Origin: Opitutales bacterium
GTDB lineage: Bacteria; Verrucomicrobiota; Verrucomicrobiia; Opitutales; PNEW01
Direction: 5' to 3'
NCBI GenBank assembly: GCA_965219535.1
Contig: CBDCNV010000002.1
Span: 1 to 32,000, forward strand
Length of the DNA: 32,000 nucleotides
Program-made: the position numbers and the translations under genes
The notes under the pieces: model-generated
The model's input: the letters and a program-made list of their open reading frames with translations, nothing else
Told to the model about the DNA's origin: nothing
Databases searched by the model: none
Shown: positions 2,544 to 30,627 of the stretch, piece after piece
Position numbering within the stretch: the stretch's first letter is position 1
Layout: every line of letters starts with the position of its first letter

Positions 2544-3377
2544 CTACTTACTCCAATATATTGCATCGGCGTTGTCACCCATAATGGCTGCTAAATCTGG
2601 TTCACTTAAATAAGTATAATAGCGCTCTTGGAGCGCGAGTACACTGGCATAACTGCTATTGAGAATAACATGGGGGAAATCACTACCCCAAATTAAACGC
2701 TTTGGACCATATGTTTCAAATAGTGCTTTAAAAATGTCATGGCAGTCGGTGTAGGGCCAGGATTCTTTTGAATGATAATAATAGCCGGTAACTTTCACTG
2801 AGACTTGAGGGAATTTACTCATCGCTAAAAGCGATTTAAATGCTGGCGCGGCCCTGCCAGCAGCGATATCCGGGTTTGCCATGTGATCAATGAGAAGTGG
2901 GACTTGTGGATAGCGTTCTGCAATTGCTGAGAGTGCCGGGAGGTGCTCGCTATTCATGAGCAGGTTTACCGCAATTCCCAGCTCCTGCGCAGCTTCCCAA
3001 ACCACATAGGATGCCGATTTACCGAAAATTTTCTCTTCCCCGTCCACGCTCGGGCGCATCCGCAATCCTTTACAACCCCGCTCCGTGACCCAGTATTTTA
3101 AACGTTCAGCCGCATCCGCTTCACGTGGATCGACATAACAGACCGCGGCCAGGTGTTCGGGGTCAGCAGCCGCACTGTCCGCGACATAGGAATTATCTTC
3201 ACTTGGGAAGAGCGGTTGAACAAGCACCGCTTTATTCACTCCGTGCTCCCCCATGTATTGCTTTAATAATTCGACCGGGACATCGGAACAGGGACTGACA
3301 ATAGTTACCGCCGGGGCGGGATGATTGCGTACCGCTCGCCAGACATGAAGATGTGCGTCAATGACCATACCCTGCAA
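2544..3377 (-). CDS. Amidohydrolase-2 family metal-dependent hydrolase (TIM barrel)
   Basis: 277 aa. VIDAHLHVW near the N-terminus, LIDHMANP, WGSDFPH. The true start may be the internal ATG at 3368 (MVIDAH...). Confidence 0.75.
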   Translation of the reverse strand: MQGMVIDAHLHVWRAVRNHPAPAVTIVSPCSDVPVELLKQYMGEHGVNKAVLVQPLFPSEDNSYVADSAAADPEHLAAVCYVDPREADAAERLKYWVTERGCKGLRMRPSVDGEEKIFGKSASYVVWEAAQELGIAVNLLMNSEHLPALSAIAERYPQVPLLIDHMANPDIAAGRAAPAFKSLLAMSKFPQVSVKVTGYYYHSKESWPYTDCHDIFKALFETYGPKRLIWGSDFPHVILNSSYASVLALQERYYTYLSEPDLAAIMGDNADAIYWSK

Positions 3378-8851: not shown

Positions 8852-8929
8852 CGGGGCGTAGCACAGCCTGGTTAGTGCGCCTGCTTTGGGAGCAGGAGGT
8901 CGCTGGTTCGAATCCAGTCGCCCCGACCA
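8852..8929 (+). tRNA. tRNA-Pro (anticodon UGG), CCA encoded
   Basis: Hand-folded cloverleaf. Acceptor CGGGGCG/CGCCCCG, D arm GCAC-AGCCTGGTTA-GTGC, anticodon arm CCTGC-TTTGGGA-GCAGG (UGG), variable AGGTC, T arm GCTGG-TTCGAAT-CCAGT, A-CCA. 78 nt. Confidence 0.9.
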
Positions 8930-8949
8930 TTATCTATCGACATTTTTCT

Positions 8950-8977
8950 AAATTTGCTAATACTATTTAGCAAATTT
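8950..8977. promoter_or_regulatory. Perfect 11-bp inverted repeat (AAATTTGCTAA-N6-TTAGCAAATTT) between the tRNA and the integrase start
   Basis: Seen directly. It ends 8 nt before the int ATG (8986). Could be an operator for int or a weak tRNA terminator. Confidence 0.35.
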
Positions 8978-8985
8978 TAATTTAG

Positions 8986-10107
8986 ATGGCGAAACAGAGA
9001 TTTAAAATCACCGGGTTTATCAACCCTAGCGGGTCAGAAGTGTGGCGGTTATCAGGTACCCTAAACGGTAAGCAAATCCGAAAAAATTTCAAGTCCCGAA
9101 ACGATGCTGTCGCCGAGCGTCAAAAGTTATCAATACGCTATCTAAATGAACAGTCCGAAGGGCAGACCGTTTGGACAACACTGACCCACGGACAGAACAA
9201 AGAGGCCATTTCAGCTATTAATCTCCTCAACCAAGCCAAGGTCAATAAACCTCTCACCTTCGCTGTTAACTACTTTTTAGCACATTATAAAGAAGCTGCT
9301 GAGACAATGACTGTCGAAGAGGCCGTCCGGGAGTATTGCGATCATAAATCGAAAGAATTAGAGCGCGGAATCATATCCTATCGCCAGGAGCACGCTATTA
9401 CCTTGGAGATGAAAAAATTAAAACGCTATTTCCCGGGACGGATCGTGAATGAAATTCAAGCTGAAGAGCTTAATGCTTACCTCGACACACGACACGGTCG
9501 ATCAAAAGCAACGCTCTCCCTTAAAAGCTGGAATAACTACCGTGGATACTTAAGTACCTTTTTTAAGTACTGCGTATCGAAAAAATATGTTGGAGAAAAT
9601 CCGATCCTGGAAGTTCCCCAGTATAAAATAAAGCAACGCAGGGGTACAGCGGAGATTCTCTCTGCAAATGAAGCAGCCGATCTGATGGAATGGCTGGAAA
9701 CTTATCGAGGCAAGCAGAACAGGGACGGATCCTGGTGGGGAGAACCCGGCTGCATGGTCCCCTATTTCTCATTAGCCCTGTTTGCAGGAATCAGACCCGA
9801 CTGGAAGCACGGTGAAATGAGCAAACTCAAACCAAAGCACATCCATACGGACACCGGGGTTATTCTTATCGAACCGGATGTTTCTAAAGTTAATGATAAA
9901 CGTGCCATTAAAATCCAACCCAACTTAAGCCTCTGGCTTGAGAAGTATCTTCCTGCCCGCAACCCCATCATCCCAACAAGAAGGTTCAGAGACATGTGGG
10001 TCCATGTCCGAAAAGAGCGCAAACTATCTCATAATGTCCTTCGGCATACCTATATATCGATGACGGTGGGGTTGATCGGACCCCGTTTTTCGTACCAATT
10101 TAAGTGA
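8986..10107 (+). pseudogene. int: Tyrosine recombinase / phage-type integrase, 3'-truncated by IS-A (native sequence ends at 10072)
   Basis: Located immediately 3' of the tRNA. FAGIRP (box I Arg) and NVLRHTYIS (HxxR region) are present. The reading frame enters the IS at 10073 before the catalytic Tyr region, and the last 11 codons are IS-derived. Confidence 0.8.
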
Positions 10108-11065
10108 GAGAGTTACCGGGTGTTAATGGTTCTAGGATTGATGTATATGAGAGATCTTGGCGAAGTGAGGGCGTAGCCCGAACGCGGCCAAGATCGGAAA
10201 GGAATCTGACAAACTCTTGTGGGCTTTTGAAGCCTAAACGACTGTGGGGATGTTCATGGTTATAGGTCTGACGCCATTGTTCGATTACCACTTGCGCTTC
10301 AGCCACGCTGAGCAACACTTCACGGTTCAAACACTCATCGCGTAAGCGGTTGTGAAACGACTCGATGAAACCGTTTTGCCAGGGACTGCCCGGATCGATA
10401 TAGATCGCCTTTATGTTATTACCGGACAACCACTGCTGCACTTGATGAGCAATGAACTCACTGCCGTTGTCACTACGGATATAGCTGGGAGGTCCCTCCT
10501 CTTCAATGGCCTCGCTAAGCACAGAGAGGACATCGGTTGAGGTGAGTTGACGAGCGACCCGGATATCCAGGCATTTACGCGTATATGTCTTCGCTTCGCT
10601 TGAGTGTCGTCGCTTTCAGCTCCTCGGTACATCGATTAGAGTCATCATCTTTAATGGACCGCCGTTGTCTGTACGATCATGGACAAAGTCCCAGGACCAA
10701 ACGTGATTGCGACCCTTTGCTTTAGTAGGTGACCCCGTAGAGACTCCTTGACGGTGTCTGCCCTTTTTCGGGGGCTTTACCTGCAGCCCTTCTGAACGTC
10801 GTACCGCCTGGACAAACTTCCTGCTTGTTGTCCAGCCTTCCTTTACCAGCAAGGCACGGATGCGCCGGTAACCGTAGCGGGGATGTTTCCAGGACAAGCT
10901 CACAATCCGCTCGACCAACCGCTGAGCTTTCTCACTGGCCTGTTTGGGCCGGTAACTGAACGTTGACCAACTCAGGCTGAGATAAGCACAAGCCCTCCGC
11001 AACGAGCACAACCCTTTCTCAGCCGCAGCTTTTACTACTCGTTTCTTCTGCTTTGGGCTCACCAT
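10100..11065 (-). pseudogene. IS-A orfB (DDE/rve integrase-core transposase), interrupted by a 42-nt in-frame insertion carrying TGA
   Basis: The two track ORFs (10616-11065 and 10100-10522) are in the same frame, separated by a TGA at 10616-10618. SDNGSEFIA and PHSRLGFKSP are rve-core motifs. There are 14 extra codons between LID and YTRKC relative to IS-B1 (VVDQYTRAC). Confidence 0.8.
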
Positions 11066-11071
11066 TTTTTT
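11065..11071 (-). promoter_or_regulatory. A7 slippery run (putative programmed -1 frameshift site) of IS-A
   Basis: T7 on the plus strand, at the orfA/orfB junction. IS3-family elements use A-rich heptamers for OrfAB fusion. Confidence 0.55.
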
Positions 11072-11139
11072 GACAGCGTTTCCTCCATTACCTGATTCTT
11101 GAGCATTTGATCTGCGAGCAGCTTCTTCAGCTCGGTATG

Positions 11140-11166
11140 TCAGGCCTTCTCGCTTGCGCTCGTGAA
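11140..11166 (-). repeat. 27-nt mini-insertion (plus strand TCAGGCCTTCTC-GCTTGCG-CTCGTGAA) in IS-A orfA
   Basis: Shares both arms with the 28-nt insert at 30500-30527. Ends in an in-frame TGA on the coding strand. Confidence 0.75.
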
Positions 11167-11352
11167 TTCTTTTTCCAGCTCTTTAAATCGCTTCGCATCG
11201 GCAAGTTCTAAATTGCCATATTTTTTACGCCAGCGATAGAAAGTCTGTTCGCTCAGGTTGTTTCCACGGCAGATTTCCTGTACCGTTTTACCGGTATCGG
11301 CTTGCCGCAATATTGTTATAATCTGTTCTGTTGTGTATCTTTTTCTTTTCAT
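11140..11352 (-). pseudogene. IS-A orfA (HTH transposase N-terminal protein), prematurely terminated by a 27-nt insertion
   Basis: MKRKRYTTEQIITILRQ...LSEQTFYRWRKKYG is a classic IS3 OrfA. Removing nt 11140-11166 restores ...ELEKEHTELKKLLADQMLKNQVMEETLSKK, which runs into the slippery site. Confidence 0.8.
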
Positions 11353-11394
11353 TGAGGTTATCTGTTTATCCCGATAACCTCTCTCTGTAAATGA

Positions 11395-12038
<644 letters not shown>

Positions 12039-12039
<1 letters not shown>

Positions 12040-12440
12040 TGGCGAAGCGAAAGCACTCGATCGATAAAGTGAGAGCGTCACGTGACGGCCACGAATACCA
12101 TGAGACGTGGACAGCCCGAAAGGCCATGCAACTCCTATGGCCGGACAGCGACCTTGCCGCAATAGCAGTCGAAGGTCTTTCTCCAACTGATCAAAAACAT
12201 GTTTCTGTACAAACAGTTGAAATCGCGGACATCACTCTCTACTACGGAGGTGGGTCTACCTTTGAGCAAGCCTCGCGGACGAGCATTGCTCAGTTTAAGT
12301 ATTCATTGTCCGACAATGACTTTCGTGCCAGCCATGCCAAGAAAACGATTCAAAAGTTTGCAGAAACCTACCGGGAATACAAGAGGAGATACGGCCCTCA
12401 AGCCGTGCACGATAGACTAGATTTTCAACTCATTACAAAT
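12039..12440 (+). other. Putative nuclease effector domain (aa 1-134) of the giant ORF
   Basis: E45 (12171-12173), D64 (12228-12230) and QFK (12291-12299) in alternating hydrophobic strands, followed by LDFQLITNRP. The order matches a restriction-endonuclease-like fold. This is motif-level evidence only. Confidence 0.55.
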
Positions 12441-15400
12441 CGTCCGATTTATGAGTCGCTACACCGAGCGATAGAAAGCATTGCATGCAGCTTACCGCGA
12501 ACTGGCAAAGTTGAAAAGCAAGCGAGACAGTTTAAGACTGCTACTGGCCTTAATGGGAAACCACTCGCTGCCTTTGCTGCAAAGTGCAAGTTCATCGGTT
12601 TCTCGGGGAGCCTTAGGTCAACCAAGAATGAACTCGCAGGCATGCTTGTTGACTGGTCTGCAACCAGTGACCCTATAGCGGTTGCGCGCCTCGGCCAGTT
12701 AAGAAATTTGGTTCGAGAAAAGGCTGGCTCTGCTAGCACCAATCAGAACCTCATCACCCGCACTGACATCCTTGCGGCGCTGCAAATCGGCGACCCCAAA
12801 AATCTTTTACCATGTGCGCCCGCACTCGCAGATGTAGGAAAAATCGTTGAGCGCGAACAACTCGCCGAAGCAATTGACCTGATTCCGGCCCTCTCGGCAC
12901 CTCTTCTTGTTCATGCGGCTGGCGGGGTAGGTAAAACTGTTTTCATGGGCAGTCTTGCAGAAAAAATAAGTGCCAATTACGAGGTTGTTTTCTTTGATTG
13001 CTTTGGCGGCGGTGCCTATCGCTCGTCCGAGGATGAACGGCATTTACCGAGGAGGGGGCTAATTCACATCGCGAACACGCTTGCAGTTCACGGTTTGTGT
13101 GACCTCATACTACCCAATAGCCCTAGTGTAGGAGAGCTGCTTCGAACTTTCAGACGGCGCCTCATCCAGTGTGTCAAGACTCTTTCCAGAATGGGATCCA
13201 GTCGAGAACTGGTAATATTCATTGATGCCATAGATAACGCGAATATAGCGGCGCTACGATACAATGATGACGCTTTTCCAGTCAAACTGCTAGAGAGCTT
13301 AAGCACCAAACCTGTCCCCGGTGTGAAACTCATTATTTCATGCCGGACGGAACGCAAACCTGAGACTTGCGCGAAGTACGACGAGTTAGAACTGCGCTCT
13401 TTCAGTATGGATGAAACGTCGTCTTTTCTGCGTGCTAGACTGAAAGACATTTCGCAGGCGAAGATCAGTGTTGCTCAGGCGCGCTCAGATGGCAATCCGC
13501 GCGTACTCGAACACCTTCTCACTAGCGGCCGTGGTCTTCTTGACGAGTCAGAGATCGATAAAAAGATTGGGCTGGACGAACTCATCCAAGAGAGGATGAT
13601 AAATGCTCTCGAGACAGCTCTCGAGCGTGGTTCAGAACAAAGCGATATTAATACTTTTCTGGCAGGACTTGCTGTCCTGCCGCCCCCCGTGCCGCTTGAT
13701 GAGTATGCTGTAGCTTGTGGCGTAGAACTTAGCGCAATCCAAAGCTTTGCGTCGGATCTGGCACCACTACTGGAACTTACCAATCACGGATTGATGTTTA
13801 AGGATGAACCTACGGAGACACTAGTTCGCAATCGGTACGCCTCGTCAACGGATGCCCTGCGCCGTGTCGCCAAGAACCTGCTCGTACGCCAGGATGTCTC
13901 TGTTTATGCTGCTCGCGCTATACCGGGCCTCTTGCATGAACTTGATGATGGCGAACGGCTTTTCAAGCTTGCTTTCGATGACCGCATCCCCGCAGCAATA
14001 ACAAGTACGGTTGGCAAAAGACACATACGGTATGCGAGGCTTAAGGCCGCCACCCTACATGCTGCGATTAACCAGAAATACAACCTTATGGTTCAGCTAT
14101 TGGTCGAGTTGTCCACGATCGCCGCAACCGATCAACGCGGGACCGATTACATTCTGGATCATCCCGACCTTGTCGTGGCTGCAAAGGATGTTGATGCCAC
14201 GCGCCGCCTTTTTGAAACACGTACTGGCTGGCCAGGGACGCGTCATGCCAGGTTAACGATAGCCAATACGCTCTCGGGCGAATACGAAGAGGCGAACCGC
14301 CATGCATTAAAAACCATAGAGTGGATCGACCACCTTATACGAATCAATTTCGATGATAAAATGGATGAACCTGGTCCGGAGCGTCCCGATATCGCGGCTA
14401 TACTTTTCTTCCGTATCTCCCAGGGTTGCGAGAAAGAGGCTGCACATTGCCTGAAAGACTGGCAAGACTGGTATGTCTACGAGGTTTTCGAATATGTGTT
14501 CGACTATTCGTGCCTCAAGCAGTCGATACGATCACAGCCACCACGTAGGCTCGAAAGCTTTGTAAGCACACTGGAGGCCATCGGTCCTCTGACAGCAGCC
14601 CTTTCTTTCCAAGAGCTTCCAAGATTAAAAAGCAAAAAACTCATCAGAAGGCTTGCCAAGCTCTGTAAAAAGACGTCTAAACTCGATCTATCGGAATCCT
14701 ATCAACGTGATAAGACATACCGGCTTGAAGACGGATTGCGCAAAGCGGCAGCGGTGGCCTTGTCGCTTGGTCTTGACGACGAAGCACAGGCAATCTCGCT
14801 ACGTGCGCCGCATCAGCGCCCAGCCATATGGTCCTTCCACGACGATTTTTATGTCAGGGATGTGTTCCCATTCGTGTTTCGAACCGCCCTTGTCGCCGCC
14901 GCCAATAAGTCAACACTTCACGAGACGGACGTACTCCCCGAGGATCTGGTTCCAATTTGTTCCCGTATTAGTAAGGATCTGAATGGCAAAGCGTTTCGAG
15001 ACAAGGCAGAGCAACGGCTATCCGAGCACATTCCCGGGGCACGGAATGAAGACGAGTCCACAAAGCGCTCCCACACACTGAGCTACGAGGATAGACGCGT
15101 TGCCGAACGATTTATCACTAATCGTCTGGAGCCATTTCTTTCACTGACGAAAGCGCTCTCAGCCGTTCTCGCAGCGCCTACGCGCAGCATAGATAAAGCT
15201 TTCATAAGATTGCTCAAAATCTGGGAGGACGCGTGCAAAAACCGCAATCGCTACCGAAGCGACGAGATTGACCATTTCTTCAGTGAGCTCGGCTTCGATT
15301 CGGTACTATTCGCCCTCTGGGCACGCAGCGAACTCGAACACGCATCGGTCAAACGTTTCCTTAAAACAGTTCATGGCCAGGATATTAGCGCGCACAACCT

Positions 15401-18400
15401 CGTGCGGATCGTTTCGATCTTAGCAAAGCGACAATCTTTACAGGAACTTGCAGGTGAACAGGCTATAAAAGCTCGCGCGCTCATCGAAGCCGAGAACGAT
15501 GTCACTTACCGGGCATCTCAGTTTGGCGCTCTCGGGCGAGCCATGCTTCCGGCAAGCATTGATGAAGCATCGGTCTATTTTCGCGATGGGCTCGAACAAA
15601 TGGATGCCATTGGGTCCGGCGACGATCTGTTCACCAACGAACTTCTCCTTTTTGCGTCCAAGATAAAAGGGGAGGAACTCGACGAGCGCGACTTTCACAC
15701 CCTGACGAATATTTGTGAACTCAATATGGGTGAGGAGCCAGAGAAGTTTTTCTGGGACGGTTTCGGCCCTGCGCTTTCCAAAGTGGCCGGCCCAAGAGGT
15801 CTGGCAAAACTCAGTCGCTGGGATGACCGCTCTAAGATATCCTTAAGCAATACCTTGCTCCCGTATCTTACGGCACTTGTTGAAGACGGAAAGATCGAAC
15901 CTAAAGACGCGCTGGCTCTCAACCGCCTAGCAATCCCCACTGAATATCTTTACTCTGGCACCAAAGAATTTGCGCAAACGATCCGAAAACAGGCCGGCCC
16001 CGATCCTGGGATTACAACCGAACTCATTCAGCAGTTCGAGGATCATAACCCCGGCATTGCAGACAACAGCACAATTGAGGTGCTCGCCTCATTTGCCGAA
16101 GAAGCTCTAGGATCATCATCAAATACTTCCAATACAGCAGCCTATCTTTCAGCAGCCCGTGTACGATTTTCTACAGTCCTTGAGAGCCGCAACAATCAGA
16201 AAAACTATAGTGAAAGACCAGATGCGCGGTGGCGTAAGAGAGCGGTAGCTATCAATCGCCAGAATCGTGCAGCCGTTGATCGCATTGTTACTTCCACAGA
16301 CCCTACGGATGAGAACTCCCTCCTAAAAGCGATCAATGACTTCAACAGCTTGCAGGATACTTATGATCTGAAGGGTGGCTTCTTCGCTTCACTTCGAGGC
16401 AAGATGCCTTTTGGTGCCCGTGCACAATATGTTCGGGTCATATGCTTGCTAGAGAAATTTTCTTTATCCTGGAAACTTGAAGAGCTAAAAGTGTGTAAAC
16501 AAAGTTGGGGAAATTCATCTGCTTCGCTTGGGCCAGTTTACAAGGATCAAGCCATTCCCCTTATTCAGCTTCATGCTAAGGACATAGTTGATGGCAGTTG
16601 GCTATCACGTTCTCACCTCAAAGAAATAACCGATCTTACAGGCGTTCCTGTCGCTGAACTTGTGCTTGAACTCATCAAAGTCATTGTTCGGCAGGATAGT
16701 TCTGTCACGGGCGCCGTCTGGCTCGCTTGTGCCGCACCTATTTGTTCGCAAGCAGACGATGGGCAAGGTCAACTTGCCCTCAAACGATTGCTTAGCAGCA
16801 ATGCTGCCACACTTGCAGATAACGTTGTGGACGGGATCTGGATGGACGGACGCTATCCAAAGGACGATGTTCCAGCGATCGCTGCCGGGCTCGTTTGGCG
16901 CATGCTTGGTTCCCCCTACGCCGAAAACAGGTGGCGTGCAGCCCACAGTATTCGGTGCTACGCGAGATTCGGATGTTGGGAGACAGTTGATTCCCTGGTC
17001 GACCATCTCAACGAGAAAACGGCAGGGCCTTTCCAGGCCTCCGAACTCACTTTTTACTACCTGCATGCCAGGCTTTGGCTTCTTATTGCGCTCGCGAGGA
17101 CGGCATTAGACCACCCAGAAAAAATCGCGACCTACAAGGATGAACTCCTTACTATTGTTACAGAAGACGCCACCCCGCATGTTCTAATGAGCCACTTTGC
17201 CACGCGCACATTGCTGACCTGTATCGATGCCGGAAAACTCGACTTGGAGGCGGGTGTCACACAGCGCTTGCGAAACGCCGACCTCTCGCCGCATCCAAGC
17301 TCAAAAGAAAAGATCAGAACTGGTGGTAATTTCTATCAGAGGCGTCCGGACTCCACACCCAAACCGAATTTTGAGTTTCATCTTGATATCGATTTTCGTG
17401 ATCACGACGTGTGCAATTTGGGCCGTATCTATGGTAAGTCGGGCTGGTATGTCGCTGACATGATGTCTGCGATCGTTCAGCAGCTTGATCCGAGCGTTTC
17501 CAGCATGTATGAATCAGGTGGTCGAGAGTCCCTTTACAGACAAACAACTCTCAGGATCAGCACGCATTATCACACACACGGTCAGCAGCTTGGTTGGCAT
17601 GCGCTTTTTTTCGCCGCGGGCAAGCTTCTTGCTGAGTTTCCTGTTACAGAAGATTGGTGGAACGAAATCGAGTGGCTTGGGCGCTATACTCTCACCCGAG
17701 ATGATGGATTGTGGCTTTCCGACGGTATAGACAGATCGCCATTTGATACGGCCATAACCCTTCTTGAAATGAAAAAAAGTGATCTTGTGGTCACCGGTGA
17801 CCGAGATAAGATTCTACAACTTGCTGGACTCACGTCTCGCGTCGGCAAAGAGCTAGTTGTCGAGGGGACATGGTTCTCTTCCGACAATATCAGTGTTAAC
17901 ATCTCGTCCGCCTTGGTTCCGCCCACAAAATCAGCAAAGCTCGCGTTGAAGCTTACTCGCGAACACCCATTGAACAACTTGATTCGAGTCTTTCATCAGA
18001 CAGATAAAGATTCAGAATACCTAAGTGGCGAAATGAATGAATTCACCCCCTGGATCGTCTGTCCGTTCGGTGAGGTCCTGCTTGACAAGCACGATCCCTA
18101 CGGTGTGTCTTTCGCTAATCTCAGGCCTTTTATCGCGAGTGATTTTGCCGCCTTTTTTACCATTACCAGTAGTGATCCGTTCCACCGAACCTGGCATGAC
18201 AAGCGCAGTAAACAGGTGATGCGATCACAAGCCTGGGGCTGTGAAAGCATAGACAGTGAAGAGAGGCCACATTCTGGACGGCGCCTTTATTGCACGTCAT
18301 CAATGCTTAAAAAGATACTTGCAAAATACGACAAAGACCTACTACTGCTTATTAAACTGAAACGGTACGAGAAAGAGTCATTTCGTGGGAATGGGAAATT

Positions 18401-18494
18401 TACTCATACCGTGGCAGTTGTCCAGATCACCAAAACGCTCGGCCTTAAATATTTCAAAGGCCGCATTAATTACATTTACAAGTCCCAATATTAA
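12039..18494 (+). CDS. Giant (2151 aa) multidomain protein: N-terminal PD-(D/E)xK (Cap4/DUF4297-like) nuclease, STAND-type P-loop NTPase, long helical-repeat C-terminal region. Candidate Avs-like antiviral STAND protein.
   Basis: Uninterrupted 6456-nt ORF whose ATG overlaps the hsdM stop (TAATG). Motifs: GHEYHE, E45, D64, Q85-x-K87; Walker A GGVGKT (12921-12938); Walker B LVIFIDAID (13209-13235); LIISCRTE; DGNPRVLEHL. Confidence here is for the CDS being real. The functional call is about 0.6. Confidence 0.9.
12891..13538 (+). other. STAND-type NTPase module (aa 285-500) of the giant ORF
   Basis: Walker A AAGGVGKT, Walker B hhhhDAxD, sensor-like R436 in ISCRTE, LELRSFSMDE, GNP(R)VL motif. 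Confidence 0.8.
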
Positions 18495-23099: not shown

Positions 23100-24083
23100 C
23101 TACGGACTCTCCTCCATATCCTCCAGATAATAGCCGGCGCCGATCAGAATCGGCAGTCCAAAGGACACGATCCGCTTGACGAATGCCACCTTGCGCCCCT
23201 CCATTCCACTCGATGGATTGCGCTTCGTGTAATACAGGAAACTCTCTCCGAAGGCGTCCGCTACGCTCACAAGATCCTGGTCTTCGACCGGTCCTACCAA
23301 CTCGGACATTATATCATCCGGCTCGCTGTATGAATCGCCACTGAACAGCGTGTAGCCATAAGTATCGATGGCAAACAAGTAGATTGATCCGTGTTTCCAT
23401 CGCGGGTCCGTGGTTAAAGTGTTGATCGCAAAGTAGCCTTTCATTTCAAGTTCCATCGCAGCGCAATGGACAAACTCCTTTAACCTCTCGTTGGAAGGAT
23501 CACTATCGAGCAACATGGCATTGACCTCTTGACTCCAGCACGTGCCCGGAATGTCGCGCTGGTAGATCCCCGCGCCAATTGCGGCCGGAGTCCCGTTCCA
23601 GTCGATGCTCCTGACGTAGGAAGCCTTCGGCTCCTCCCTGTCCGTCGCTGGATTTGTAATGGAGTAGTAGATCCAGCTCTCCTCGACGATGCTCATGATA
23701 CGATATAGTTCCCTGAAGTAGTCGTTGCCGAAGGAGTCGACAAACAGTCCCCACGGTTTCCCTTCCCTTGAAGGATCGGGCGGGTAGACGATCGCTCGAG
23801 CCATATCGGTCATTGATGTCACTTCGTCGACAAAGACATAAAACTGACCGCTGTTCCAACGCTCGTCTTCGTGAAAAGCCCTGCGTGCCTCACTGAAGCC
23901 CTTTGCACGGGCATACTCGTAGGCGCACTGAACGAACGCCTCTATGTCCTCCGGTGTGCGCACCGCACTGGCTACGATGGAGTGATCAGAGCAAGACACA
24001 GCTTCTTGAGCGCCAAACATCGGCAGCACAGCGAACATGGAGATTAAGGGAATCAGCAATGGATAGAAATGGTGTTTCATCAT
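23100..24083 (-). CDS. Secreted/periplasmic protein with two tandem single-Cache (sCache_2-like) domains, paralog 1
   Basis: 327 aa. Signal peptide MMKHHFYPLLIPLISMFAVLPMFGA. Two repeats of the pattern A..F..D.RW..G..Y.F..D......PPDP...G.....D..G......W.YY...NP......K..Y......IGAG.Y. No TM or output domain. Confidence 0.8.
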   Translation of the reverse strand: MMKHHFYPLLIPLISMFAVLPMFGAQEAVSCSDHSIVASAVRTPEDIEAFVQCAYEYARAKGFSEARRAFHEDERWNSGQFYVFVDEVTSMTDMARAIVYPPDPSREGKPWGLFVDSFGNDYFRELYRIMSIVEESWIYYSITNPATDREEPKASYVRSIDWNGTPAAIGAGIYQRDIPGTCWSQEVNAMLLDSDPSNERLKEFVHCAAMELEMKGYFAINTLTTDPRWKHGSIYLFAIDTYGYTLFSGDSYSEPDDIMSELVGPVEDQDLVSVADAFGESFLYYTKRNPSSGMEGRKVAFVKRIVSFGLPILIGAGYYLEDMEESP

Positions 24084-24284
24084 TTGTAATTATTTGCGAT
24101 TCTTCGCTTTTGACATTTTGGGAAGTAAAGTTTGCGTTGGGAGCCTCTCATCTCTTGTCCGCCCCAGGTATTCAATGGCTCGTTCTTTGGTTCGGAAAGA
24201 CTCTAATAGTTCAATTATACTCATCATAAGCAACTCTACATGACAGGTTCTCCTACCATGTGTTCTGCGCGAGCTTTGCCCGGC

Positions 24285-25343
24285 TTACGGACTCTCCTCC
24301 ATGTCCTCCAGATAATAGCCGGCGCCGATCAGAATCGGCAGTCCAAAGGACACCACCCTCTTGACGAATGACACCTTGCGCTCCTCCATCTCACTCGACG
24401 GATTGCGTATCGTGTAATACAGGAAGCTCTCTCCGAAGGCGTCCGCTACGCTCACAAGATCCTGGTCTTCGATCGGTCCTACCAACTCGGACATTATCTC
24501 TCCGAAGGCGTCGGCGTCCTCAACGCTCACAAGATCCTGATCTTCGTCCGTTCCTACCAACTCGGACATTATATCATCCGGCTCGCTGTATGAATCGCCA
24601 CTGAACAGCGTGTAGCCATAAGTATCGATGGCAAACAAGTAGATTGATCCGTGTTTCCATCGCGGGTCCGTTGTCAAAGTGTTGATCGCAAAGTAGCCTT
24701 TCATTTCAAGTTCCATCGCAGCGCAACGGACAAACTCCTTCAACCTCTCGTTGGAAGGATCGTCATCGAGCAACATGGCATTGACCTCTTCACTCCAGCA
24801 CGTGCCCGGGATGTCGCGCTCGTAGATCCCCGCGCCAATCGCGGCCGGAGTCCCGTCCCAGTCGATGCTCTTGAGGTAGGTACTCTTTGGCTCATCCCTG
24901 CCCGTTACCGGGTTTGTAAAGGAGTAGTACATCCACCCGTCCCCGACGCTGCTTATAACACGATGAAATTCTTTATACCAGTCGTTGCCAAAGACGTCGA
25001 TTATCGGTTCTCCCCACGGCACCCCTTCCAGCGAAGGGTCAGGTGGGTAGACGAATGATATGGATGCCTCGGTGGGTACCACTTCGCTAACGAAGAGATA
25101 GATTGGGCCGCTGTTCCAGCGCTCGTCCTCATTAAAAGCCCTGCGTGCCTCACTGAAGCCCTCTTCCTGGACATACTCGTAGGCGCACTGAACGAACGCC
25201 TGTATGTCCTGCCGTGTGCGCACTGCGCTGGCCACGATGGAGTGCTCGGCGCAAGACGGAGGTTCAGCAGCACCGAACATCGGCAGCACAGCGAACGTTG
25301 AGATTAAGAGAATCAGAAATGGACAGAGCTGGTGTTTCATCAT
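24285..25343 (-). CDS. Secreted/periplasmic double-Cache protein, paralog 2 (with a 25-aa internal duplication)
   Basis: 352 aa, same architecture. The 3' half is about 95% identical by eye at nucleotide level to paralog 1. Confidence 0.8.
   Translation of the reverse strand: MMKHQLCPFLILLISTFAVLPMFGAAEPPSCAEHSIVASAVRTRQDIQAFVQCAYEYVQEEGFSEARRAFNEDERWNSGPIYLFVSEVVPTEASISFVYPPDPSLEGVPWGEPIIDVFGNDWYKEFHRVISSVGDGWMYYSFTNPVTGRDEPKSTYLKSIDWDGTPAAIGAGIYERDIPGTCWSEEVNAMLLDDDPSNERLKEFVRCAAMELEMKGYFAINTLTTDPRWKHGSIYLFAIDTYGYTLFSGDSYSEPDDIMSELVGTDEDQDLVSVEDADAFGEIMSELVGPIEDQDLVSVADAFGESFLYYTIRNPSSEMEERKVSFVKRVVSFGLPILIGAGYYLEDMEESP
24429..24572. repeat. Intragenic tandem duplication (69-nt unit + 75-nt unit) in paralog 2
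   Basis: CTCTCCGAAGGCGTC...CTACCAACTCGGACATTAT occurs twice in a row. Paralog 1 has one unit (about 23243-23311). Accounts for the 25-aa length difference. Confidence 0.85.
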
Positions 25344-25446: not shown

Positions 25447-26361
25447 TCAGTTTGAAATTCTTTTCTTATAAGGCCCTCTGGGATTTGTTTTTGATTCCGA
25501 ATCCTCGATTAGATCGATAATATCAAAGACATCCCAAAGCCTATGTGTTAATCCCGCTTCCATCGCGGGAGATACACGCAAGGTCTTGTGTAGCCTACAA
25601 AAATTGTAAAATACGGTATAAAGGGAGCATGAATAAAGGTGGTTTTCTAACTTCTTGGAAAAGGCGTTTGTCAGCCGAGTAAAACGCCTCATTGACATTC
25701 TCATGGTGAGGTTGTGACGTTCGACGTGCGAAGTGCTGATTGATTTCTTTTTTGGATTCCCGTTGATGTTGTTTTTTACCGAGCTTTTGAATATCGGCGG
25801 GCTGTATCGCTTAGTCTTATGGTAGTCCTCACCGTAGACCTTTACTAGTTGGGCGTAATCGACATCACCGCCAAATGCTTCTTCTACGGCATCCAGGTAG
25901 ACCCGATAACCATCAGTGGTTAGTTGGACTCGATTTGCAAGGCGTCCTTTCAGATCATGCATAAACTCGTAGGCAGTCGACGCTGTCCGATCACCTATCT
26001 GATAGGAGATGATTAACTTGCTATCGCTGTCTAGGGCTGTCCAAGTCCAAACATCACCAGACCCTTCTGGTGCCGCTTTTGACTGTTTAACATTCTTTTC
26101 CTTTGCATAGCAGAAAGACCATATTTCGTCACATTGGACACGCTGTGCTTTGACATTACGAACTGCCTTGTCGTGGAATTCAACACAAGCCTTACCAGCA
26201 TCAACCAGTAGCTTGGCAACGGTATTAGTTGATACATCAACAGTGCGAGCGATTGCTCTTTGTGACATCCCCTCAACCAGAAGGGAAAGGATCATTGCTT
26301 GTTTCTCTCTTGGCAGCTTATTCATACTGACTAAAATGACATAAATGCCTAGCATAGTCAA
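25447..26361 (-). CDS. IS1-family-like single-ORF transposase (probable start at 26325, MNKLPREKQ...)
   Basis: N-terminal HTH (GMSQRAIARTVDVSTNTVAKLL), DEIWSFCYAKEKN, WTWTALDSDSKLII, TTDGYRVY, HVERHNLTMRMSMRRFTRLTNAFSKK. The motif order is as in IS1-type DDE transposases. Element ends not resolved, though GGTAGTGAC abuts the stop at 25438-25446. Confidence 0.7.
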   Translation of the reverse strand: MTMLGIYVILVSMNKLPREKQAMILSLLVEGMSQRAIARTVDVSTNTVAKLLVDAGKACVEFHDKAVRNVKAQRVQCDEIWSFCYAKEKNVKQSKAAPEGSGDVWTWTALDSDSKLIISYQIGDRTASTAYEFMHDLKGRLANRVQLTTDGYRVYLDAVEEAFGGDVDYAQLVKVYGEDYHKTKRYSPPIFKSSVKNNINGNPKKKSISTSHVERHNLTMRMSMRRFTRLTNAFSKKLENHLYSCSLYTVFYNFCRLHKTLRVSPAMEAGLTHRLWDVFDIIDLIEDSESKTNPRGPYKKRISN

Positions 26362-28103: not shown

Positions 28104-28266
28104 GCTTATTCCAAAAAGAAGTATCTCTAATTAAGAATGCAACCCCAAGGATAAGCATTATTTTCATAAAGACGATAACAGCCCTCGGGAAAGGCCAATC
28201 TGTTATATCCCCCTTGACCAATTTGGCCTCAAGGCCAAATAACAATACAAGGTGACCTGCTCCCGT

Positions 28267-29133
28267 TTACTGTACCAGAGCAAGTGTTAGTTCCGGCAGG
28301 GTGGTATGGGTTTTAACTTTCTTAGACATGGCTCTCTGGGCGTATTCGGCCGGAGGCCGATAGCCCAGAGAACTGTGTGGTCTTTGAGTATTATAATCAA
28401 GCCGCCAGGCTTCAAGTTTTTCTTTCGCTTCAGCGAGCGTACAAAATAGCTCGGTGTTAAGAAGTTCATCTCGTAAGCGTCCATTGAAGCTCTCAATATA
28501 ACCATTCTCTACGGGTTTACCTGGCCGGATAAAATCCAGCTTGATGCCATGGCCATAAGCCCATTCATCCAGTACTTTGCCGGAAAACTCGGGCCCATTA
28601 TCGACGGTAATGGTTTGGGGAAGACCGATTCCTGCAGCGGCTTTCATAAGTGCTGCAGCGACTTTGTGCCCACCGATGGACGTATCGACCAAAAGCAGTG
28701 GGCAAGCTCGGGTGTATTGATCGACAACGGTGAGTATGCGGAAGGGGCGGCCGTTGGTCAGCCGATCGCTCATAAAGTCCATCGACCAGCGCTCCTGGGC
28801 TGCTGAAGCCGCGGGCAGTGAGACCCGTCTTTGCGCGGCACGCTTCTTTCGTTTCTTCGTGCGCACTTCCAGCCCTTCGGCCTTGTAGATACGATAAACG
28901 CGTTTCTTTCCTACCGTCCAGCCTTCCCGCTTTAATAACACCGTGATTCGCCGATACCCGTAGCGCACGCGCGCTGCGGCGAGGTCACGGATGCGCATGA
29001 TCAGCGCACGTTCGTCCTTCTTCACCGGCTGGTAGTTATAACTCGACCAATACAACTTCATCAGCCTGCACGCGCGGCGTTTGCTCACCTCATAAGCTTC
29101 CACTAACCAGTCAGCAATCACCTTCTTGCGCAC
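28267..29133 (-). CDS. IS-B1 orfB, DDE (rve) transposase
   Basis: 288 aa. [41 protein letters not shown]. Confidence 0.9.
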
Positions 29134-29138
29134 AGGCT

Positions 29139-29411
29139 TTATAATTTTTTTGCGATTACTTCCTGCAGCATGTGCTTGTCCAGGCTCAGATCAGCTACCA
29201 GCTTCTTCAAACTGGCGTTCTCTTCATCGAGTTGCTTCAGCCGTCTTAATTCGCTCATTCCCATGCCCGCGTATTTACCCTTCCATCGGTGGTAGGTCTG
29301 TTCGCTCACGCCTAACTCTCGGCACACTTCGGCGATCCTTCGACCGCCTTCTACCTGCCTTAGGGCATAGATGATTTGTTCTTTATTATATCGTTTTCCT
29401 TTATTTTTCAT
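29139..29411 (-). CDS. IS-B1 orfA, HTH transposase subunit
   Basis: 90 aa. [22 protein letters not shown] plus a leucine-zipper-like tail. Confidence 0.9.
29145..29151 (-). promoter_or_regulatory. A7 slippery run (putative programmed -1 frameshift site) of IS-B1
   Basis: T7 on the plus strand, at the end of orfA and overlapping the orfB frame. Confidence 0.55.
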
Positions 29412-29497
29412 GGGTGGTTCTTTCTCCTATTTTTTATTAGGTTTTCCACCCATGCCAGACTAAATCTTTGCTGGTCCAGTTTTACGGGGACAGGTCA

Positions 29498-30627
29498 GGT
29501 GGTATGGGTTTTAATTTGCTTAGATATGGCTCTTTTGGCGTATTCGGCTGAAGGCCGATAGCCCAGAGAGCTATGTGATTCTTGAGTATTATAATCAAGT
29601 CTCCAAGCTTCAAGTTTTTCTTTCGCTTCAGTCAGCTTATAAAATAGCGCCGTGTTAAGAAGTTCATCGCGTAAGCGTCCATTGAAACTCTCAATATAAC
29701 TATTCTCTACGGGTTTGCCTGGGCGAATAAAATCCAGCTTGAGGCCATGGCCATAAGCTCACTGATCCAGTACTTTGCCGACAAACTCGGGCCCATTATC
29801 GACGGTAATGGTTTGGGGAAGACCGATTCCTGCGGCGGTTTTGTGCCCACCGATGGACGTATCGACCAGAAGCAGTGGGCAAGCTCGAGTGTATTGATCG
29901 ACAATGATGAGAATGTGGACGGGGCGGTCATTGGTCAACCGATCGCTAATAAAGTCCATCGACCAGCGCTCCTGTGCAACTGAAGCCGCGGGCAGTGAGA
30001 CCCGCCTTTGCGTGGCACGCTTCTTTCGTTTCTTCCCTACTGACCAGCCTTCCCGCTATAATAACACCGTGATCCACCTATACCCGTAGCGTACACGGAC
30101 GGCGGCGAGGTTACGTATGCACGCTCGTCCTTCTTCACCAGCTGATAGTTATAACTCGACAAACACATCTGCATTAGCCTGAACACCCGGCAGTTGCTCA
30201 CCTCATAAGTTTCCACTAGCCGGTCAGCAATCACCTTCTTGCGTACAGGCTTTACCATTTCTTTGCGATAACTTCCTGTAGCATGGGCTTGTCCAAGCTT
30301 AGGTCAGCTACCAGCTTCTTCAAACTCGCGTTCTCTTCGTCGAGTTGCTTCAGCCGTCTTAATTCACTGATTCCCAGGCCCGCATATTTACCCTTCCAAC
30401 GGTGGTAGGTTTGTTCGCTTATCCCTAACTCTCGACACACTTCGACTGCCATCTACCTGCCTTGGGCCATTGATGATTTGTTCTTTATTATATCGTTTGT
30501 CAGGCCTTCTCGGCTATACCTCGTGAACCTTTGCTTTTCATGTGTGGTTCTTTCACCTATCATATATTAGGTTTTTCACCCATGCCAGATTAAATCTTTG
30601 CTGGTCCAGTTTTTCGGGGACAGGTCA
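29498..30627 (-). pseudogene. Degenerate second copy 'IS-B2' of the same IS, abutting IS-B1; lacks its orfB-side terminal repeat
   Basis: Collinear with IS-B1 from GGTGGTATGGGTTTTAA onward. There are several deletions, TGG>TGA at the LDEW position, a destroyed slippery run (AAAGAAA) and a 28-nt insertion in orfA. Its orfA-side end ...GGGGACAGGTCA is at 30627. Confidence 0.8.
30500..30527 (-). repeat. 28-nt mini-insertion (plus strand TCAGGCCTTCTC-GGCTATAC-CTCGTGAA) in IS-B2 orfA
   Basis: Absent from the otherwise collinear IS-B1 (29391-29415). Deleting it restores [14 protein letters not shown], compared with [14 protein letters not shown] in IS-B1. Confidence 0.85.

Follow-up and report, generated by a model that had tools for sequence, protein, structure and literature searches.

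Short hairpin-bearing inserts in transposase genes and other dispensable DNA of Opitutales bacteria

Introduction

Two transposase genes in a 32,000-nucleotide stretch of an Opitutales genome, which we refer to as the window, are each interrupted by nearly the same short, hairpin-like sequence ending in a TGA stop codon, and the question raised by this locus is what such an insert is, how it comes to lie in these genes and what it does to them. The original prediction, made from the letters of the window, had described a shared mini-insertion with constant arms and a variable core in two unrelated IS3-family orfA genes. It had offered as explanations a minimal palindrome moved by a Y1 transposase, an excision footprint, or an engineered or assembly artefact, and had added that a natural element of this kind would preferentially knock out transposases. 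Here we follow the insert, hereafter E, from the window into related genomes and metagenomes.

Results

Two inserts with empty counterparts

The pattern TCAGGCCTTCTC-N5-10-CTCGTGAA has exactly two matches in the window (Table 1), with zero expected from 100 shuffles, and both read on the minus strand, which is the coding strand of the host orfA in each case. They lie at the predicted positions, and on the coding strand the core between the same arms differs as had been claimed (CGCAAGC against GTATAGCC); the former core recurs in the E copy of an Opitutales MAG (OY829953.1). Both are true insertions with known empty homologues. Intact IS-A copies of related genomes lack the 27 nt; their ..GAA^AACACC.. 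corresponds to ..GAA[27 nt]CATACC.. in the window, E being placed between the codons ..EKE and (N->H)TELKK, and the empty IS-B1 copy of the window itself reads ..AAAGG^AAAACG.. against ..AAAGG[28 nt]CAAACG.. in IS-B2. The in-frame TGA, which had been noted for both window copies, is indeed there and recurs in an IS66-family transposase, but it is not universal, as a 26-nt copy reached from an intact orfA (L069) has its TGA out of frame. The two hosts belong to different subgroups, yet both are IS3-family orfA genes and hence not entirely unrelated.

Table 1 Features of the window
Feature	Position	Strand	Description
E in IS-A	11140-11166	-	E-type mini-hairpin insert, 27 nt, TTCACGAG-CGCAAGC-GAGAAGGCCTGA; in IS-A orfA, TGA in frame
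E in IS-B2	30500-30527	-	E-type insert, 28 nt, TTCACGAG-GTATAGCC-GAGAAGGCCTGA; after codon 5 of degraded IS-B2 orfA, TGA in frame
X in IS-A	10588-10629	-	X-type insert, 42 nt, two mini-hairpins, TACCGAGGAGCTGAAAGCGACGACACTCAAGCGAAGCGAAGA; in IS-A orfB (..LID^EYTR..), TGA in frame
IS-A	10073-11417	-	IS3 family, 1345 bp including E and X; with both inserts removed, orfA 88 aa and orfB open
ORFs of IS-A orfB split by X	10616-11065; 10100-10522
IS-B1	28253-29497	-	Intact IS3-family element, 1245 bp; 90-aa orfA, 288-aa orfB; empty-site reference
IS-B2	29498-30627	-	Degraded IS3-family copy carrying E; several deletions
Nested IS-B1 and IS-B2	28253-30627		3' end of IS-B2 truncated by insertion of IS-B1
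Native GCGAAGC motif of IS-A orfA	about 11190-11200	-	Codons D-A-K-R; in all IS-A copies
tRNA-Pro(TGG), then integrase-like ORF	8852-10107		373 aa; no Pfam hit, tyrosine-recombinase-like ..VLRHTYISM..
HsdM-like ORF	11449-12039		Resembles C-terminal part of type I restriction-modification methylase
NTPase ORF	12039-18494		2151 aa; NACHT/AAA_16 hits
Cache-domain sensor proteins	23100-25343		Two, adjacent
IS1-like DDE fragment	25447-26361		Fused to sigma-70 region-4 HTH ORF

IS-A and IS-B2 both lie within a tRNA-Pro-linked genomic island of the Opitutales genome, and the tRNA-Pro gene with its integrase-like ORF probably forms the boundary of this island. The HsdM-like ORF adjoins the left end of IS-A and looks as if truncated by it. 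The long NTPase ORF is a candidate STAND-type defence or signalling protein in the island, and the two Cache-domain sensors stand beside the ORF that joins an IS1-like fragment to a sigma-70 domain.

Anatomy of E

The arms of E are exact in 90 of the 101 copies found in 0.7 Mb of fetched loci from several Opitutales genera. Between them lies a core of 5-10 nt, and each genome has its own variant of it. Comparison of 34 distinct cores showed that the core keeps a covarying mini-stem of 1-3 bp, the last G of the 5' arm included, with a mean of 1.71 bp against 0.65 +/- 0.12 in shuffled cores (0 of 2000 shuffles as high). The original prediction had instead proposed imperfect pairing between the arms; nearest-neighbour folding of the whole of E stays at the level of shuffled sequence for DNA and RNA on both strands, which leaves arm-to-arm pairing unsupported and places the stem inside the core. 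GCGNAGC or GCGNNAGC is found in 47 of 71 flank-distinct copies on the coding-sense strand and in none on the complement, and the core of the IS-A copy (GCGCAAGC) is itself a match to GCGNNAGC (PMC13037366). These motifs are known as "mini-hairpin DNA", which melts near 76-82 C as DNA and at about 39 C as RNA, is found at single-stranded DNA priming and promoter sites and at phage and plasmid origins, and, with its GNA loop, is more stable than nearest-neighbour models estimate (PMC13037366). The candidate strand-specific DNA hairpin in E is d(TTCACGAGCGAAGCGAGAAGGCCTGA). The 3' arm contains an AGGCCT (StuI) site, and the 3' end, CCTGACA, equals one CCTGA(A/C)A heptamer.

Distribution and genomic contexts

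A scan of one genome per species gave at least 81 E loci, nearly all in Opitutales/Verrucomicrobiota MAGs and in Pelagicoccus mobilis (KCTC 13126, L074), and JGI metagenomes added 25 loci in the same context families. The genome-wide search for the arms-core-arms pattern that had been proposed with the original prediction has in this way recovered the arms more than 100 times, from many independent genomes and metagenomes of Opitutales (Verrucomicrobiota), in about 37 independent flank contexts. Eight matches (L026, L038, L059, L075, L095, L104, L110 and L116) were set aside as chance occurrences inside conserved genes of other phyla with different flanks. A phage or ssDNA-replicon origin was likewise rejected, the viral collection giving one chance-like match with a non-pairing core, as was an origin from E. 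coli or from the laboratory, since megablast matched none of 5,426 E. coli genomes. Rfam holds no family for E at gathering score or at E<=10, and the literature on the motif and on Opitutales hairpin repeats does not contain the motif in any relevant context.

The contexts of E are of a few kinds. Within IS-A-type orfA it fills the identical codon boundary in the window, in Ruficoccus (L001, L069) and in L054, three lineages only about 45-50% identical, and within IS-B orfA the same site is filled in the window and in four copies of CBDANS01 (L040, L046, L047 and L067). In the IS66-family transposase, E lies inside the ..D-E-T.. motif. Outside transposase genes it occurs in duplicated tRNA 3' ends (att-like fragments) adjoining intact tRNA genes, in MITE-like repeats, which hold the bulk of its copy number, and in gene ends, leaders and intergenic DNA. 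At one tRNA locus (L050, 1330-1440, minus strand) the trailers of tRNA-Met and its att-like duplicate each contain the sequence TTCACGAGG, which equals the 5' arm of E, some 30 nt away from the inserted copy. Intergenic copies show no preferred orientation with respect to GC skew or to the ORFs beside them, and no sense-strand bias.

None of the examined loci has an ordinary gene interrupted by E, the candidates being gene ends, 5' leaders and chance ORFs. With two IS3 subgroups and IS66 among its hosts, E can be recognised as the natural, tiny, repeated element truncating transposase genes that had been predicted. That it "preferentially" knocks out transposases is true as a description, but the preference may reflect tolerance, as no ordinary gene was found hit; conversely, targeting could lie behind the bias towards mobile DNA.

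The same data bear on the idea that the inserts were left behind as a footprint when a larger transposon excised, or that they are artefacts of engineering or assembly, for instance barcodes or adapters. The constant-variable-constant layout and the StuI site fit such an origin; against it, the 0.7 Mb of element-rich fetched DNA holds neither a solitary arm nor a larger parent element, the cores covary as stems, dozens of MAGs and metagenomes produced by different projects carry E, which shows drift and decay, and the motif is absent from the relevant literature. We regard this origin as extremely improbable, and its footprint and artefact forms are both contradicted; the sequence record indicates that the E inserts are natural and excludes an adapter, barcode or assembly artefact.

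A wider family of inserts

Aligning the IS-A copy of the window with other IS-A copies uncovered four further inserts, X, Y, Z and W, which begin with T(A/T)CCGAG(G/C), contain GCGAAGC-type mini-hairpins and often carry a GACGACA(C/T) box. X is present in the window, where it splits orfB in two, and sister IS-A copies carry up to four of the inserts, each at its own site. The second half of Z resembles E, and a 49-nt relative of the modules lies in the L054 pseudogene. A sister motif, E2, takes the slot of E in some MITEs and forms 52-nt tandem arrays. By these shared features E belongs to a family and does not stand alone.

Arrays of E2 (TTCGGAGCAGAGCGACGATCCTCAAC) were seen in L049 (minus strand, 2951-3107) and in L016, L021 and L045, and in the same loci variable runs of the CCTGA(A/C)A heptamer adjoin E.

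The Y site has received a second insert (Y', in L121/P0175) that has a start identical to Y and ends after 17-21 nt; a 4-nt duplication then leads back into the host sequence, in frame and free of stops. As the two events share their start and differ in their end, the start is fixed and the end usually CA but variable, and at least this one site has been hit twice independently. X is identical over 42 of 42 nt in IS-A copies whose flanks differ by 5-7%. Pairs of inserts also recombine to give deletions: in the OrfB variants P0195, P0279, P0184 and P0196 the breakpoints of the deletions fall within two different inserts (Y with Z) or within short native repeats, which implies that the modules promote internal deletions of their IS.

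A common junction rule

Comparison of empty and filled sites yields one rule, N(G)^A(A/G) to N[insert]CA, in which there is no target duplication and AR is replaced in register by CA. An intact IS-A master (L123) provides the empty reference for the IS-A sites E, X, Y, Z and W, all of which follow N^AR to [insert]CA. For E, besides the IS-A site given above, GGAG^AACGCT becomes [E]CACGCA in the orfA of L054, GGGTTC^AAATCC becomes [E]CAATCC in the tRNA-Met duplicate (L050), GATTTG^AACCC becomes [E]CACCC in a second tRNA fragment and CCTG^AAACCC becomes [E]CAACCC in a MITE, while in the IS66 transposase GAT G^AR ACG becomes G[E]CA ACG and changes the protein from DET to D[E]AT. For the longer modules, GATG^AATATA becomes [X]CATATA (42 nt; in full, GATG^AATATACG in the intact master against GATG[X]CATATACG in the filled copy), AGTG^AGTTCA becomes [Y]CATTCA (31 nt), TGGC^AAAACG becomes [Z]CAAACG (42 nt) and GATG^AGTGTT becomes [W]CATGTT (35 nt). 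The IS-B junction is uninformative because the empty relative already has GGC there. Across E copies, G at -1, C at +1 and A at +2 are each present in 66 of 71. No duplication was found in 10 empty/filled pairs, the 4-nt duplication being that of a single atypical event, and the return point lies exactly 2 nt downstream in 10 of 11 insertion events. Orientation is fixed, each site takes its own module type, and sites are reused. The rule and the recurrence of hits can, in our reading, be taken as established by these comparisons.

Such junctions could arise with no dedicated enzyme, by template switching or short-patch recombination at 1-2 nt of microhomology (left side TG, right side A) followed by gene conversion between IS copies. 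The in-register replacement of target bases, neither displaced nor duplicated, agrees with this, as do the common start and different ends of the Y-site events, the 4-nt duplication typical of a strand switch, the identity of X despite diverged flanks, the genome-specific core variants and the mutual recombination of inserts. However, over more than 100 copies in several genera the 5' boundary is sharp and never varies, and the 3' boundary hardly does; the arms are perfectly conserved beside variable flanks; the orfA lineages filled at the same site have diverged too far for gene conversion; and the return point is nearly constant. We therefore consider template switching rather unlikely, though it is the alternative that we take most seriously.

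All IS-A copies carry a native GCGAAGC motif in orfA, 24 nt upstream of the E site, which may bear on site choice.

Consequences for the host IS

When the inserts are removed exactly, the full frames of orfA and orfB return, with GCA, CCA or CAY standing where conserved codons for Glu, Gln and Asn had been (Glu to Ala at three sites, Gln to Pro, Asn to His). With the inserts in place, no single recoding event would do the same. E inserts of 26, 27 or 28 nt are entered in phases 1, 0 and 2, and the offset at which they rejoin the downstream frame depends on the site (0 in IS-A, +1 in IS-B, 2 in IS66 and L069). The codon before the stop of E is GCC and finds a landing match in no E case, a formal match (AGC..AGC) being confined to X. 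In IS-B, orfA would be restored exactly by a +1 shift at GCC-U-GAC, yet a prfB-like +1 frameshift, UGA readthrough and ribosome hopping were each rejected, as each suits at most one context. Since no frameshift or bypass rule restores the frames, the inserts act as knock-outs, save for the rare in-frame, stop-free ones: Z, which is translated in frame in full-length OrfB lineages (P0179, 321 aa), and Y' (P0175) are of this kind, and E, X, Y and W are not.

Three filled Ruficoccus IS copies (L001, L006 and L030) are 99.6-99.8% identical and share a 7-G run, whose extra base together with the 26-nt insert makes 27 nt and brings downstream orfA back into the ATG frame with the TGA in frame; the older L069 has 6 G. 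A compensatory frameshift (G7 + 26 = 27) was not reproduced in L054, which is simply a decayed pseudogene, and the arrangement may be compensation or chance.

On its private branch the intact master L123 is constrained (pN/pS 0.09 in orfA and 0.12 in orfB), and so is L121 with its in-frame 21-nt variant (0.10 in orfB, with no private changes in orfA). The IS-A copy of the window, hit by E and X, has 0.06 and 0.19, which suggests a recent inactivation. L088, which holds X, Y, Z and W and in addition a true TAG stop, has 0.77 and 0.94 and evolves neutrally; dead IS-A copies thus accumulate modules. IS-B2 is a long-dead copy with four internal deletions of 11-51 nt. Intact OrfB masters (306-307 aa, 90-93% identity) exist, one of them on the same 2.07-Mb contig as four-insert copies, and copies of the L088 type are multicopy and identical, so that dead copies are evidently mobilised in trans by the masters.

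Among filled IS-B copies, which lie at different genomic sites with frames intact but for the insert, pairwise pN/pS is 0.05-0.12 at a pS of 0.16-0.29. Such values, like the near-identity of the multicopy filled Ruficoccus copies, call for hits that recurred independently, for trans-mobilisation or for residual function. In the IS tree the empty IS-B1 lies within the diversity of the filled copies, which makes repeated independent hits at a hot spot the simplest explanation, with residual function as a further possibility. The loop variant was rejected as a marker of co-inheritance in IS-B, since it differs by one base only and disagrees with the IS tree.

Residual function would follow if the inserts were intron-like or switch-like intervening sequences, removed precisely from mRNA or reversibly from DNA, with the IS functional and its transposase regulated. 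The restoration of both orfA and orfB by exact removal every time, the low pN/pS of filled IS-B copies (about 0.1, at different sites) and of the IS-A private branch in the window, the multicopy state of filled copies and the extreme conservation of the arms, as for a recognition site, are all in keeping with this. On the other side, there is no Rfam ribozyme or intron match; removal leaves CA for AR and changes conserved residues; the four-insert copy evolves neutrally, and copies of its type remain multicopy despite a true TAG stop; intact masters able to act in trans share the genome; and intergenic copies lack a sense-strand bias. On this evidence an intron-like role seems quite unlikely to us, and we continue with the knock-out reading.

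Discussion

On balance we favour the explanation that E is the shortest member of an Opitutales-endemic family of non-coding insertion modules of 21-49 nt, mobilised in trans and knocking out genes of their host IS. A module begins with T(A/T)C(C/A)..GAG, has GCGNAGC-type mini-hairpins (one or two) on a single strand and is succeeded by CA. It is written in fixed orientation at a short N(G)^A(A/G) target, where CA overwrites AR. As the mechanism we infer a trans-acting activity that would open a nick in the target and then copy in or ligate the single-stranded, hairpin-bearing module; our preferred version is a single-strand, hairpin-dependent "copy-in" at the nick, with a fixed start and an end that is normally CA. 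Having no coding capacity, the modules must depend on mobilisation in trans, and because they truncate or frameshift products when inside genes, they can persist only in dispensable DNA. Such DNA would comprise IS3 and IS66 transposase genes, duplicated tRNA ends, MITE-like repeats and spacers, where the modules may hitch-hike to high copy number.

A bolder version would have a dedicated, sequence-guided writing system, either a host anti-transposon defence or a guided ssDNA or retro-element, nick N(G)^AR at selected positions in transposase genes and copy in stop-carrying hairpin cassettes. If true, this would explain why each site has its own module type, why diverged IS lineages are hit repeatedly at the same sites and why the arms are invariant across genera; we nevertheless hold it to be unlikely, and keep to modules mobilised in trans.

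If confirmed, the modules would be among the smallest bacterial mobile insertion units, at 21-49 nt, with a junction chemistry (no duplication, CA overwrite) that fits no described transposition pathway. Insertion sequences would then be peppered and inactivated at recurrent positions by smaller parasites or by a host system, which bears on the control of IS load. At a practical level, the modules yield apparent pseudogenes and split transposase calls in Opitutales assemblies, and their mini-hairpin cores may perturb sequencing and assembly.

Comparison with known systems

Closest in kind, beside the Rickettsia palindromic elements treated below, are REP, BIME and REPIN sequences. Like the modules, these measure 20-40 nt, form strand-asymmetric stem-loops, have many intergenic copies close to the ends of genes and depend on mobilisation in trans; the mosaic of E, its sister motif E2 and heptamer arrays recalls a BIME in particular. 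The defining tag of REPs and REPINs is a GTAG or CGTC tetranucleotide at one end of the palindrome (PMC3733652). In contrast, the arms of E (TTCACGAG and GAGAAGGCCTGA) carry neither GTAG nor CGTC, its stem has only 1-3 bp, and the modules, unlike REPs, enter coding sequence at recurrent sites and turn two target bases into CA.

Two Y1-bearing elements coexist with E. The Opitutales genome CAXXNP/OY762281, the most element-rich, has a multicopy IS200-type element (L002, L005, L018, L034, L062, L065 and L081) with CCCCG..CGGGG end hairpins, inserted after (T/A)TCAA-like targets. In L029 (2700-3400) a RAYT-like Y1 transposase gene has GTAG-tagged REPs (ctGTAGGCCGGAGCGCCGATCCGGC) on both sides, a classical REP/RAYT pair.

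The original prediction had named a minimal palindromic element moved as single-stranded DNA by a Y1 enzyme (RAYT or TnpA), that is, a REP-type repeat or a minimal IS200/IS605-type palindrome, and the search for Y1 genes that it called for did find an IS200-type TnpA and a RAYT-like gene in element-rich genomes. The presence of these Y1_Tnp genes, the small size, the strand-specific hairpin, the lack of target duplication and the many intergenic copies speak for such an origin. Against it, E lacks the GTAG or CGTC tag (PMC3733652) and has a single hairpin, not two, and the resident enzymes have their own substrates: the IS200 copies keep their end hairpins and TCAA target, and the sole RAYT-like gene in the fetched loci (Pfam Y1_Tnp, 3e-9) has GTAG REPs rather than E on its flanks, and neither a cognate RAYT flanked by E nor another mobilising enzyme was found in those loci. 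Overwriting two target bases is, moreover, not Y1 chemistry, and the 5' target is weak. A link to Y1 enzymes is accordingly very unlikely in our estimate.

Compared with MITEs and IS200-derived elements, the modules are also non-autonomous, amplified and hairpin-containing. They differ from both in having no terminal inverted repeats, target duplication or matching parent IS and in being 3-10 times smaller, and from IS200/IS605 derivatives also in the single mini-hairpin of E, in ends unlike those of resident TnpA elements, and in the target, which has no fixed 4-5 nt and favours only G at -1, its two 3' bases being replaced by CA.

Rickettsia palindromic elements (RPEs) are selfish DNA within protein-coding genes, about 100-150 bp long, usually in frame and found in ordinary genes. 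Like RPEs (mentioned in PMC10969869 and PMC1166351), the modules are short non-coding repeats inside ORFs, and Z and the 21-nt Y' are translated in frame without a stop; unlike them, the modules measure 21-49 nt, mostly bring stops or frameshifts and were encountered nowhere but in mobile or dispensable DNA.

Bypass inserts (T4 gene 60 and mitochondrial "byps") are hairpin-containing stretches of 27-55 nt in ORFs that include a stop codon and are mobile (bioRxiv 10.1101/2022.08.31.505936; PMC5009743). E differs from these in having no matched take-off and landing codons, in the position of its stop at the 3' end, in its varying rejoin offset and in the neutral evolution of heavily hit copies. 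A prfB- or antizyme-like +1 cassette fits IS-B only (GCC UGA C, +1), as the offset is 0 in IS-A and 2 in IS66 and L069, and introns or ribozymes differ in that E, at only 26-28 nt, has no recognisable catalytic RNA core. With mini-hairpin DNA the likeness is literal, most E cores being exactly GCGNAGC or GCGNNAGC and on one strand only, but the known examples are functional sites at phage and plasmid origins, whereas the copies of E are dispersed insertions (PMC13037366). Set against all of these systems, the modules are an undescribed variant of small non-autonomous repeat elements.
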